NCBI GenBank assembly: GCA_951406725.2
Contig: OX597821.1
Coordinates: forward strand, 54,002,001-54,066,000
From: Octopus vulgaris
Lineage: Eukaryota
Direction: 5' to 3'
DNA: 64,000 nucleotides
The translations under genes and the position numbers were made by a program. A model generated the notes under the pieces. It saw nothing but the letters and a program-made list of their open reading frames with translations, searched no databases and was not told the DNA's origin. Below are positions 8,215 to 26,019 of this stretch, piece after piece (the stretch's first letter is position 1; the number at the start of each line of letters is the position of its first letter).

Positions 8215-8940
8215 AATAGTATCAGGGTAATAAAGATTTTAGAAAGTTTTACTACCAGTGGCCTAGCGTATAGAAAAATTAAATAGACTATATATTATTC
8301 ATATAAAAACACAATGTAGATTTAAACACATAAGAGGTGTCCATCATAGGACTCCCTTGCGCTAGAAGGAACAGATAAAGTCCAAACTACTAATTAGGGA
8401 TAAAAATTTCGAAGGGAATGAAAAATAAAAACATTTATAATCTATTTCCTGAACTTTTTGTTTAGCAAATAAAAATAATTTGCTAGGCAAAGTCTTCATC
8501 AGCAGGTATGCCAAGTTTAAACATATAAACACGAGGCAAATCCAGTATGTGCCTCTTGCTTATACATTATAATTTTCCAAATCTACCACGCAAGCGCAGT
8601 TTTTTGTTGGCACCAAAAACATGCCTGCAATTTCTTCAAACAATTTTTAGAGAAATCATTATTACCCTATTATTAATTATGTACATACTGGATTTGCCTC
8701 GTGCTTATATGTTTAATCTTGGTGTACCTGCTGATGAAGACTTCGCCTAGCAAATTATTTTATTTGCTAAAAAAGAAGTCTGAAACCATGGTCCAGGAAA
8801 TAGATGGTAAATGTTTTTATTTTTATTCCCTTCAAAATTTTTATCCCTAATTAGTAGTTTGGACTTTAGCAGTTTCAGTCAAGTGTAAGGGAGTCCTATA
8901 TGGACACTTCTTATGTGTTTAAATGTACGCTGTATTTTAT
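8215..8940. mobile_element. Inverted pair of HHR-bearing non-coding units (retrozyme/PLE-repeat-like)
   Basis: 8303-8548 is the reverse complement of 8683-8940. The pair is flanked by TG/TA microsatellites. The right copy has an intact HHR and the left copy has lost the 3' core. Confidence 0.8.
8727..8797 (+). ncRNA. Type I hammerhead ribozyme, intact core
   Basis: CCTG-CTGATGA-AGACTTC...(inner TAGCAAAT/ATTTGCTA hairpin)...GAAGTCT-GAAA-CCATGG-TC-CAGG. Stem I is 4 bp, stem II is 7 bp and stem III is palindromic. Predicted cleavage after GUC at 8793. Confidence 0.88.
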
Positions 8941-8997
8941 ATATATATATATGAAGGTAAGTCATATATATGAAAGTAAGTCACATTTATCATTCCA

Positions 8998-9361
8998 CAT
9001 AAAAAGACCCAGTATGCCCTGTAAAATACAAGGCATTAGGAAGGGCAACAAACCATAGAAACCATGACAAAATATGGTTTCTATGCAATTTATTCACATG
9101 TATGTGTTTGTTGTAATTTGCATCTCACATCTAGTTATTTAAATTTCACATTCCTGATCAACAAACAGAACAAACATATACACTTTATATCCGACTGATG
9201 AACAGGAATGTGAAATTTAAATAACTAGATGTGAGATGCATATTACAACAAACACATACATATGAATAAATTGCATAGAAACCAGATTTTGTCATGGTTT
9301 CTATGGTTTGTTGCCCTTCCTAATGCCTTGTATTTTACAGGGTATACTGGGTCTTTTTATG
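8998..9361. repeat. Long near-perfect inverted repeat (~160-bp arms, ~35-nt spacer)
   Basis: 8998-9160 is the reverse complement of 9196-9361 with few mismatches. Confidence 0.92.
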
Positions 9362-9563
9362 TTACTGGTGTAACAAAATCTCATTGTAACTGTTGAGGAA
9401 CTTGTAGAGAAGCTTGGATTTGGTCGTTCAACCATTCATTGATAAAAATATAAGACATTGCTTTACCATCACTTACCATTCAGGTCACTCACCTTTACTA
9501 GTTTTCTAAATATGGAATCTCTTATTAGAAATCCCCAAACCAGCAAACATTTTGTTAGCAGGG

Positions 9564-9860
9564 AATAGGGTAAAGACCCCCTTCGGTCATGAATGACCAT
9601 GGGATTGCACCTAGAAAGTTACCCTCCTAGACACAAGTCCGGGCAAGGTTGTTTATGGAAGACCAGCAGTCGCCCATGCATACCAGCCTCCCCTCTCCAC
9701 GCCACTAGTGTTATTCAAGGGAAAGACAGAGGTCGATACAGCTTGGCACCAGTGACGTTGCAACTCATTTCTACAGCTGAGTGAACTGGAGCAACGTGAA
9801 ATAAAGTGCTTTGCTCAAGAACACAAAACGCAGCCCGGTCCGGGATTTGAGCTCACAACC
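9564..9860 (-). mobile_element. SINE family B (CORE-like central domain)
   Basis: Minus strand reads GCACTTTATTTCACGTTGCTCCAGTTCACTCAGCTGTAGAAATGAG after a B-box remnant. A second copy with its tRNA head is at 30915-31152. Confidence 0.8.
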
Positions 9861-9962
9861 ATCATTACTAGATGCACAGAGATTTTTAGCAAAGAACAAA
9901 TGTAAAGAAACATACATTCACATACACATAAACGAACAAATAACAACACATACATATATGTG

Positions 9963-10499
9963 GAGCAGGTATGACAGTGTGGTAAGAAGTTTGCTTCTCA
10001 ACCACATGTTCAGTGCCACTGCATGGCACCTTTGGTGAGTGTCTCCTACTATAACGTCAGGCTAACAAAATCCTTGTCAGTGGATTTGATAGACAGAAAC
10101 TAAAAGAAGACTGTAATATACTCTTTTCTCCCTTTACTTGTTTCAGTCATGTGACTGTGGCCATGCTGGAGCACCGCCTTTAGTCGAGTAAATCGACCCC
10201 AGGACTTATTCTTTGTAAGCCTAGTACTTAGAATTCTATCGGTCTCTTTTGCTAAACACACCATCATCGGTTGTCACGCAATATTGGGGAACAAACATAG
10301 ACACACAAACACACACATATATACATATACATATATACGACACGCTTCTTTCAGTTTCCGTCTACTAAATCCACTCACAAGGCTTTGGTCGGCCCGAAGC
10401 TATAGTAGAAGACACTTGCCCAAGATGCCACGCAGTGGGACTGAACCCGGAAACATGTGGTTGATAAGCAAGCTACTTACCACAGAGCCACTCCTGCAC
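9963..10499. mobile_element. Convergent pair of family A SINEs (head at 9963-10110 +, full copy at 10122-10499 -)
   Basis: Both match 5178-5602, in opposite orientations. Confidence 0.85.
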
Positions 10500-23749: not shown

Positions 23750-24025
23750 CAACAGCCACAACAAACAATACAGTAAACATTGACAACAACATCAACAACA
23801 CAACAAACAACCACAACACAACTACAAAAGCAATAACAACATAATAAACACCCACAGCAATACATCAACCACAACAGCACACCATATTGTCACAATGAAA
23901 ATAATAACAAAGTAACGACAACAACAACATCAGTGACAACAACACATTTAATAGCCAACACAATAGACAGCTACTACATCAACAACAACAACAACACTAA
24001 AAACAGTTACAAGAACGATAACTAA
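23750..24025. repeat. Degenerate (CAA)n tract
   Basis: Low-complexity ACA/CAA run. Confidence 0.85.
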
Positions 24026-25166
24026 ACAGAAAATTATTCAATGACAATATATGGCAGAATAGGAATTTCCTTATTGTTTTTCAATGTAATGGATGATAAT
24101 TCTCTCTCTCTCTCTCTCATACACACACACAAATATATATATTTGACTTTGCGTTAAAGTGTGGGTTAGTGGGTGTTAGGTGCATCCTTATGTAGGTACA
24201 ATGGCCCCTGGCACGTAAAAAGTGCCCACTACACTCTCAGAGTGGTTGGCGTTAGGAAGGGCATCCAGCTGTAGAAACACTGCCAGATCAGAACTGGAGC
24301 CTGGTGCAGCCTTCTGGCTTCCCAGATCCCCGGTCGAACCGTCCAACCCATGCTAGCATGGAGAACGGACGTGAAATGATCATGATGTGTATTTATTTTA
24401 ACAGGACATAATTATCTAGTGTTAGTCTCTTTGTGTTGCTTTTCATATTTTGATGACACTGAAGTGTCATACTCGTCATCATCATCATCATCATTGTTGT
24501 CATTATTTTACATCTATTTTCTATACAATGTCAGACAGTCACAATGGTCTGAGTCTGTTCTTTTTCAGAATTAGTGCACTCCACCTAAAGAAGTTTAAGG
24601 ACAATGGCTGGCTCAAATGTTTCAATTTTGTTTTGTACTATTCAGCTGGAATCACAGTACAGTGATTACTGAGCACATTTTTATCATGGTACCACCAAGC
24701 ACTGGAGATGTGAGGCTATGACAAATGACTGAGACTGTTGGCAATTTGCTGGGGACACATAAAAGGCTGGTGACACGTAAAAGGCACCTGAGCGAGTGAC
24801 ACATAAAAAGCACACATATTGGTGACATGTTAAAAGTACCCATGCCAGTGACTTGTTAAAGGAACCTGGTACACTCTGCAGAGTGGTTGGCATTAGGAAT
24901 GGCATCAAGCCATAGAAACCAAACCAAAACATACTGGAGCCTAGTGCAGTGTCTAACCCTTGTCAGCATGGAAAACAGATGCTAGATGATGATATATATA
25001 TATATATATATATATATATATATATATATATATATCCGTAAATATAAGAGAGTTAACGTTAAATAGGTCAATTCTAGTATTCTGGTATAGCCGCCGACGA
25101 TACCTCCACATAGAAATAGCACTAGCCTCAACGTAAGGAAAGTGAAATACAACTAAAAAATAGATT

Positions 25167-25245
25167 AATGTTGTACAATTGTTTCTTTATCAATATAATA
25201 TGCAAATTACACTCACATATATATCTATAAATCATCAGCAACATT
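25167..25245 (-). ncRNA. Type I hammerhead ribozyme, intact core (minus copy)
   Basis: Reverse complement reads AATGTTG-CTGATGA-TTTAT...ATAAA-GAAA-CAATTG-TA-CAACATT. Confidence 0.88.
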
Positions 25246-25650
25246 TGTCATTGATACAATTTATCAGGCCTACACGAGCGACGATTACCCATGCGGTCTA
25301 ATCGATTGCATTCAGGGTTGTAGTTACAAGTTCCCCGCCAAAAGCATATGCTAAGACTTAGTGGAAGCGGATACCGCATGTAATATTTACTGCAGTGTAT
25401 CAATTTCATAAATTCAAAAATAAGGGTGAAAAATTAGATATTAATTTAATAATACCATTAGTTTAACACCAAGTGACCTTGCATTTATGAAATTGATACG
25501 CTGCAGTAAATATTACATGCGGTATCCACTTCCACTAAGTCTTAGCATATGCTTTTGGCGGGGAACTTGCAACTACAACCCTGAATGCAATCGATTAGAC
25601 CACATGGGTAATCGTCGCCCGTGTAGGCCTGATAAATTGAATCAATGACA

Positions 25651-25729
25651 AATGTTGCTGATGATTTATAGATATATATGTGAGTATAATTTGAATATTA
25701 TATTGATAAAGAAACAATTGTACAACATT
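25651..25729 (+). ncRNA. Type I hammerhead ribozyme, intact core (plus copy)
   Basis: AATGTTG-CTGATGA-TTTAT...ATAAA-GAAA-CAATTG-TA-CAACATT, with a 7-bp stem I. Predicted cleavage after GUA at 25722. Confidence 0.88.
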
Positions 25730-26019
25730 AATCTATTTTTTAGTTGTTTTTCACTTTCCTTACGTTGAGGCTAGTGCTATTTCTATGTGGAGGTATCATC
25801 GGCGGCTATACCAGAATACGGAGCTATTTCTAGCACTAGAGTTGACCTATTTAACGTTAACTCTTTTATATTTACGGATAAATATGTATCATCTCCCTGG
25901 TTTGTTATGTGCTAGGTCGCTCGGTGTTAAACTAATGGTATTATTAAATTAATATCTAATTTTTCACCCTTATTTTTGAATGTATATATATAATCTCTCT
26001 GGATCTTTCCTTCTCCTAT

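Follow-up and report, generated by a model that had tools for sequence, protein, structure and literature searches.

Type I hammerhead units in the Octopus vulgaris genome as likely non-autonomous retrozymes of the Penelope type

The window analysed here is a 64,000-nucleotide stretch of the Octopus vulgaris genome (GenBank assembly GCA_951406725.2, contig OX597821.1, positions 54,002,001 to 54,066,000 of the forward strand). It contains four short units with hammerhead ribozyme (HHR) motifs, which are interpreted here as probable retrozymes mobilised in the manner of Penelope-like elements (PLEs). An earlier note on this DNA had described the units as non-coding, as carrying a type I HHR each, and as adjoining (TA)n, (TG)n or (ATT)n tracts, and all of this holds for the four. 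Their monomers are 358 to 497 nt long with a GC content of 33 to 42%, and the longest ATG-initiated open reading frame (ORF) on the circularised monomers is 30 to 64 aa. The search with type I HHR models that the note had proposed gave a divided result. A descriptor made up of three stems around CUGANGA, GAAA and NUH finds motifs in all four units and 8 matches in the window, compared with none in 18 and one in 2 of 20 dinucleotide-resampled windows. The Rfam hammerhead models, however, match none of units 1 to 4, and give only a weak Hammerhead_3 match in the window, at 19547-19616 (E 0.33).

Units 1 and 4 each consist of two inverted arms that meet head to head. The left arm of unit 1 (8210..8662, minus strand; L091) covers about one monomer and ends at the distal of two preferred 3' sites, called B, while the right arm (8685..8940, plus strand) is 5'-truncated and ends at the proximal site, A, against (TA)n. 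The right-arm HHR (8727..8797, core 8731, predicted cut after 8793) has a CUGAUGA core, a 7-bp stem II with an inserted hairpin, a palindromic stem III and a GUC site; its left-arm counterpart is broken by a 13-nt deletion running through GAAA/stem III. Unit 4 is made up of a left arm (25035..25483, minus strand) that ends at site A against (AT)n and contains an HHR at 25167-25245 (core 25238), and a right arm (25479..25981, plus strand) of about 1.0 copy that ends at site B. The right-arm motif (25651..25729, core 25658, predicted cut after 25722) combines CUGAUGA, a palindromic stem III and GUA. Units 2 and 3, both on the plus strand, are single arms with terminal redundancy, of periods 481 and 358. 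Unit 2 (17850..18411) holds about 1.17 copies of its 481-nt monomer, ends at site A and has (TA)n on both sides. Its HHR (18183..18281, core 18190, predicted cut after 18274) has CUGACGA, a 7-bp stem I, GUA and an extended stem III, which may permit cleavage as a monomer. Unit 3 (20701..21160) holds about 1.29 copies of its 358-nt monomer and ends at site B, with (ATT)n upstream and (TA)n downstream; its HHR (20896..20938, core 20902, predicted cut after 20932) shows a U3-A8 core covariation (UUGAUAA), a palindromic stem III and GUC.

These structures require some revision of the earlier description. The proposed monomer lengths of 481, 358 and 497 nt stand, the last being the period of unit 4, but the length of about 355 nt given for unit 1 is replaced by 470 nt, as measured in a natural tandem (L097). 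Terminal redundancy or circular permutation, proposed for every unit, is found as redundancy in units 2 and 3; units 1 and 4 are the inverted pairs. One HHR per monomer is the rule in all four families, with the broken unit 1 left arm as noted. The four were also thought to be distinct, largely divergent lineages. Units 1 and 2 are instead homologous over most of the monomer (local score 165 against 30±4 for shuffles, z 34), so there are at most three lineages; unit 4 is at most distantly related (z 3 against unit 1), and the same comparison with shuffles gave no relatedness of unit 3 to the others. Stems I to III of units 1 and 2 differ in sequence while pairing is kept in both, which suggests that the ribozyme is under selection. 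Folded in isolation, the HHRs of units 1 to 4 give z-scores of -3.7, -3.4, -1.4 and -0.3, significant for units 1 and 2 only.

Each unit belongs to a repeat family, U1 to U4, of hundreds to thousands of copies in the 2.8-Gb, 227-contig assembly. A first look gave 1348 to 2960 candidates per family (40 scored each), and exact 18-19-mers matched 261 times for U2, 186 for U4, 476 for U3 and 1969 for U1 genome-wide, with no matches for reversed controls. Monomers were numbered from the predicted HHR cut. An initial mapping of the 120 top BLAST-match loci, in which two 3' ends recurred in each family, favoured long copies; length-unbiased samples, picked by an exact motif just upstream of the first 3' end, took its place. 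These were drawn from the first 100 of 261 (U2), 100 of 186 (U4), 30 of 476 (U3) and 30 of 1969 (U1) matches and comprise 61, 77, 27 and 24 loci, 189 in all. The families are young, with U2 copies mostly 94-99% identical; U1 loci are 71-94% identical to their reference, which makes U1 5' ends less reliable. Within the 120 top-match loci, the largest seamless multimers reach 4.47x in U2, 1.9x in U1, 1.83x in U4 and 1.64x in U3. Arms with two HHR cut sites occur in U1, U2 and U4, and L089 provides a U3 case. GAAA is intact in 56/58, 66/68, 48/52 and 43/45 of the laps listed across the four families. At L055 and L014 (G000:C2 ~71262700-71264500), copies of U2 and U4 are found within some 400 bases of one another. 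Microsatellite hot spots gather several families, there as in the window.

The strongest regularity concerns the insertion ends. Of the 318 segment 3' ends in the 189 loci, 287 are confined to two intervals that cover 7-20% of the monomer: site A, about 135-175 nt after the cut, and site B, about 230-260 nt after it. A (TA)3+ run follows 183 of these 287 ends, against a background of 3.9%, although U3 is weaker in this respect (11/46 ends). The 5' ends, by comparison, are scattered over 33 to 93 distinct positions per family, and 45 of the 287 arms are longer than one monomer, 11 of them spanning two cut sites. Among the 86 inverted pairs in which both ends can be classified, 83 are A+B, two are A+A and one is B+B (p 1e-21); a further 26 pairs have one unclassified end. 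Two fixed 3' ends that leave a tail, 5' truncation, an inverted copy and partial tandems are all present, as expected of a PLE-mobilised element. Insertions of endonuclease-positive (EN+) PLEs are described as partial tandems with an inverted 5'-truncated copy, a tail on one end and a preference for (TA)n (Craig et al. 2021, PMC8557442), and in an Anolis PLE the tail corresponds to two internal start sites of the reverse transcriptase (RT) (Frangieh et al. 2024, PMC11167929). That a non-autonomous unit is mobilised here in the PLE manner has good support, and we hold it with high confidence. The earlier proposal of non-autonomous elements moved by PLEs from a more-than-unit template is borne out by the paired 3' ends, the scattered 5' ends, the multimers, the (TA)n flanks and the lack of a 5'-joined ORF. 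The sampled copies do not fit the picture of fixed linear ends or of simple 3' repeats of coding PLEs, which is part of what the note had named as counting against it.

Information on the template comes from variants shared within loci. Adjacent tandem repeats agree at 657 of 690 segregating sites in U2 (413 expected), 375 of 386 in U4 (232), 192 of 229 in U3 (149) and 57 of 66 in U1 (42), and inverted arms agree at 403 of 433 sites in U2 (262 expected) and 649 of 663 in U4 (393). Private variants are common to both laps in 11 cases in U2 and 26 in U4, and in 16 of 27 long multimers the nearest sequence is the neighbouring lap of the same locus, among 19-67 others. No directional lap-specific variants were found in either family: of 83 differences in U2, four recur in the same and two in the opposite direction, and of 108 in U4 none and two. 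A candidate lap-specific U2 haplotype (positions 376/378, five loci; 108), which would have implied a dimeric template, was rejected as an artefact of gap placement, since direct alignment and the raw sequence show identical laps. It follows from the shared variants that lineages pass through a one-unit template, either a circle or a precise jump, unless gene conversion has homogenised the repeats. The distance across the cut does not vary in 34/34 laps of U2 and 42/42 of U4 and in 27/28 of U1 (103/104 together); in U3 it is kept in 7/9. A second signal lies at the cut itself. Of the 66 U2 arms that extend as far as +40, 26 end short of the cut, with 12.1 stops per kb in the +1..+40 interval after it against 2.6 just upstream; A and B arms show this alike, and it recurs in the second lap. 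As this interval was chosen after a small U2 subsample had been viewed, held-out (p 0.005) and scan-corrected (17/500) tests were applied. With moderate confidence, we read the pattern of ends at the cut across the families as a mixture of ligated and unligated monomers. When the families are divided by core, the pile-up is significant for the intact U2 and U3 (p 2e-4) and not for the weaker U1 and U4 (p 0.8), a post hoc split dominated by U2. Assembled contigs of four presumed-RNA runs aligned on U2, a form of data that cannot show strand, ends or circles.

The genome also contains autonomous PLEs. An intact element at L365 (G000:C16:20834800-20841500) encodes a 781-aa protein with RT plus a GIY-YIG domain at the C terminus, preceded by a 359-aa ORF (L365:606-1682) that has no Pfam match above the cut-off. 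Pfam finds the GIY-YIG domain, whereas RVT_1 falls just under the cut-off in L365 and above it in L366. The element is a unit of about 4.8 kb with 456-nt pseudo-long terminal repeats (pLTRs) that are 99% identical; it terminates at (TA)n and has two such ends, separated by 40 nt, its classifiable inverted pairs are A+B in 3/3 cases, and its HHR-like motif has the U3-A8 core seen in unit 3. In a GIY-YIG search, 16 of 150 scored matches lie in 781-aa open frames. A second young PLE family is GC-rich and about 100% identical, with 1190 candidates. A PLE end homologous to the units was found neither in the L365 pLTR nor in 50 endonuclease-centred loci and 30 loci of the second family, a small part of 6136 candidates. 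No unit contains an RT and GIY-YIG ORF, and the units are accordingly not autonomous PLEs. At L161/L416 (G000:C2 ~65785800), site B marks the exact end of a stuttered U2 fragment, to which a 5'-truncated PLE of the second family is attached with no TA repeat in between. This junction is not counted as support, as a template switch or a later nested insertion could produce it and among the 30 loci of that family it is a single case.

Other features of the window include three HHR motifs absent from the earlier note's list. One, at 19533..19585 (minus strand), belongs to an element at 19480-19790 (minus strand) that is unrelated to units 1 to 4; it has an extended stem III and is preceded by a hairpin of about 110 nt that adjoins a (TA/TG) tract. 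Another is a minimal PLE-type motif recognised by eye at about 26017-26057, within a short separate repeat (25991..26155, plus strand) that occupies the microsatellite of unit 4, has a second copy at 28737-28855, and has copies of 96-97% identity in L351 and L437. The third, at 45669..45753 (plus strand), was found by the descriptor and by eye resembles an inverted pair in L384, a locus that also holds another HHR with the same stem III palindrome as unit 4; the L384 motifs lie in the intervals 900-1360 and 4455-4545, and these motifs represent additional HHR families. An inverted-repeat structure recognised by eye immediately follows unit 1 (8945-9400, arms at about 8990-9180 and 9190-9360), and a Mariner-type transposase fragment lies at 6743-7189 (minus strand; PF01359, E 5e-15).

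It is possible, in principle, that the units are merely truncated pLTRs of coding PLEs, as these show an identical tail and inversion architecture. The units are not such stubs because long arms wrap onto themselves: the full-unit arms, 45 of the 287 and up to 4.47x in length, run into their own 3' end rather than into an ORF. The 781-aa PLE protein matches 9 of 334 family loci and is joined on the 5' side in none; neither a search with this protein nor an ORF scan found a PLE ORF in the 64-kb window, and the 77 free 5' flanks have no family-specific sequence in common. We regard this explanation as largely refuted and very improbable. A different possibility is that the templates are uncleaved linear multimers transcribed from tandem loci, with gene conversion or unequal crossing-over homogenising the repeats and the HHR as a passenger. 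Unprocessed RNA is the main substrate of the Anolis PLE in vitro (PMC11167929), local tandem expansion has been proposed by Li et al. (2026; bioRxiv 10.64898/2026.07.22.740005), and U4 and U1, often with weaker cores, lack a pile-up after the cut. Against this, lap-specific variants that recur directionally were found in neither U2 nor U4, and both laps hold the same private variants. A passenger ribozyme also sits poorly with the diverged, still-pairing stems of U1 and U2, which imply selection. We therefore consider uncleaved multimers an unlikely source.

Alternatively, the template may be the linear, HHR-cut monomer, with the RT making a precise jump between the two ends of that monomer, 5' to 3', and no covalent circle, the elements and the enzyme being otherwise unchanged. 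Such a jump accounts for the one-unit bottleneck and for the U2 pile-up at the cut, and the stuttered U2 fragment of L161 makes re-priming visible. RT jumps often leave scars, however, and the junctions across the cut keep their length in all but one of the laps of U1, U2 and U4. Circles have, moreover, been demonstrated for the retrozymes of mussel, coral and axolotl (PMC7229834), and we judge a jump without circles to be improbable.

Several points weigh against the reading that we prefer, in which one-unit, ribozyme-processed RNAs, likely circular, are copied by a PLE enzyme. The L365 pLTR has no detectable homology to the monomers (12-164 of 200 shuffles reach the score), and neither do 12 other endonuclease flanks stand out (z<=2.5). 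The concordance counts use BLAST columns with known gap artefacts and sites that are not independent, and repeats could likewise have been made alike by gene conversion once inserted. Only U2 has a clear 5'-end pile-up, which is weak in U3 (p 0.08) and absent in U4 (p 0.19); U1 has none after the cut and an excess of 5' ends upstream of it, and stalling of the RT at a folded HHR could mimic the U2 pattern. GUU sites and a U3 opposite G8 are expected to cleave poorly. GUU is nonetheless found in 42 of 68 U4 laps, the commoner subfamily, and at least 26 of about 47 U1 laps combine U at position 3 with G8, so that these non-optimal cores have spread. Cleavage and circles of the unit RNAs are themselves predictions from the repeats. 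Finally, mutating the HHR of the Anolis PLE leaves insertion in vitro normal, and none of the reads terminate at the cut (PMC11167929).

The architecture, the end positions, the A+B pairing and the variants shared within loci can be read directly from the genome; from these we infer cleavage, ligation and the identity of the enzyme. On balance, we think it rather probable that the units are non-autonomous PLE-type retrozymes whose predicted self-cleavage gives a one-unit RNA that is likely circularised and copied into TA microsatellites by a PLE RT/GIY-YIG protein. In such a cycle, a more-than-unit genomic copy would be transcribed, and the HHRs would cut out the monomer, in dimeric form if their stem III is a short palindrome. 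A host ligase would then close part of the monomers into circles. The PLE protein would nick (TA)n and prime reverse transcription at one of the two internal sites, A or B. On a circle, the RT would pass the cut and go round again to give seamless copies of 1.1-4.5x, while on an unligated monomer it would stop near the cut. Where both target strands are primed, one would use A and the other B, and the two cDNAs would join head to head. A more specific version is tentative and in our view somewhat doubtful: the genome may record a retrozyme cycle in which a PLE protein dimer primes both strands of a nicked TA target, using A and B of one and the same ribozyme-processed RNA, then goes round ligated circles or runs off the 5' end of unligated monomers in a ratio that depends on ribozyme quality. 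If true, such a record would show in vivo that PLE-type templates are defined by the HHR cut. The way in which more-than-unit and inverted PLE insertions arise, and whether the HHR matters, have been called open (PMC8557442; PMC11167929), and rolling-circle copying of retrozyme circles is a proposal (PMC7229834). Short, ORF-less and young families provide compact substrates in which the predicted RT start sites are exact, the A+B rule is almost strict and a stop signal is linked to the cut, and they add thousands of repeats of an unannotated type to the octopus genome.

The closest known systems are the metazoan non-LTR retrozymes, for which circles are reported in coral, mussel and axolotl and PLEs are proposed as helpers (Cervera and de la Pena 2020, PMC7229834). 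Like these, the octopus units are non-coding, have one type I HHR per monomer and a GC content below 45%, occur as more-than-unit copies and co-exist with PLEs; the mussel monomers are 350-390 nt long. In contrast, three of the octopus monomers measure 470-497 nt, against about 170-400 in that study, although within the 51-972 bp of the 2026 preprint; octopus copies are mostly sub-unit fragments or inverted pairs rather than arrays, and the octopus families are known from sequence alone, whereas expression and circles were demonstrated in the earlier systems. The terms octopus, cephalopod and microsatellite do not occur in the main text of PMC7229834. Li, Clavereau and Pollet (2026) regard animal retrozymes as non-autonomous PLE derivatives, an interpretation shared here, and they too describe monomer, dimer and multimer copies. 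Their elements, from vertebrates, insects and a coral, are linked to pLTRs by sequence, while the octopus link is through the mechanics of the insertion ends, homology to a pLTR having been sought and not found; the parts of the preprint considered here contain no analysis of such ends. With the EN+ PLEs (PMC8557442; PMC11167929), the units have in common two fixed 3' ends, a one-arm tail, inversions and microsatellite targets, and the non-autonomous head-to-tail Chlamys elements such as MRC1 are analogous to them. They differ in lacking an ORF, in tails of about 50-97 nt rather than 30-40, in larger HHRs with long stem II inserts and, compared with the Anolis PLE (PMC11167929), in the clustering of U2 5' ends after the HHR cut.

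The HHRs of PLEs (Cervera and de la Pena 2014, PMC4209133) resemble the octopus motifs in the palindromic stem III of units 1, 3 and 4, the U3-A8 core of unit 3 and the pairing of HHRs on opposite strands, but the octopus motifs sit in ORF-less monomers and stem III of unit 2 is extended. Circles as templates for more-than-unit PLE insertion were already proposed in that study. In plant LTR retrozymes, a unique core is flanked by LTRs that carry a type III HHR; the octopus units are type I and self-wrapping, and so do not belong to that class. The earlier note had suggested that these families might be undescribed. Our literature search found no description of cephalopod retrozymes, although subscription papers, Repbase/Dfam and preprint supplements may name these families, and animal non-LTR retrozymes as a class have been published (PMC7229834; bioRxiv 10.64898/2026.07.22.740005). 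The octopus repeats are likely new members of this known class of animal non-LTR retrozymes, and they offer useful footprints of mechanism.

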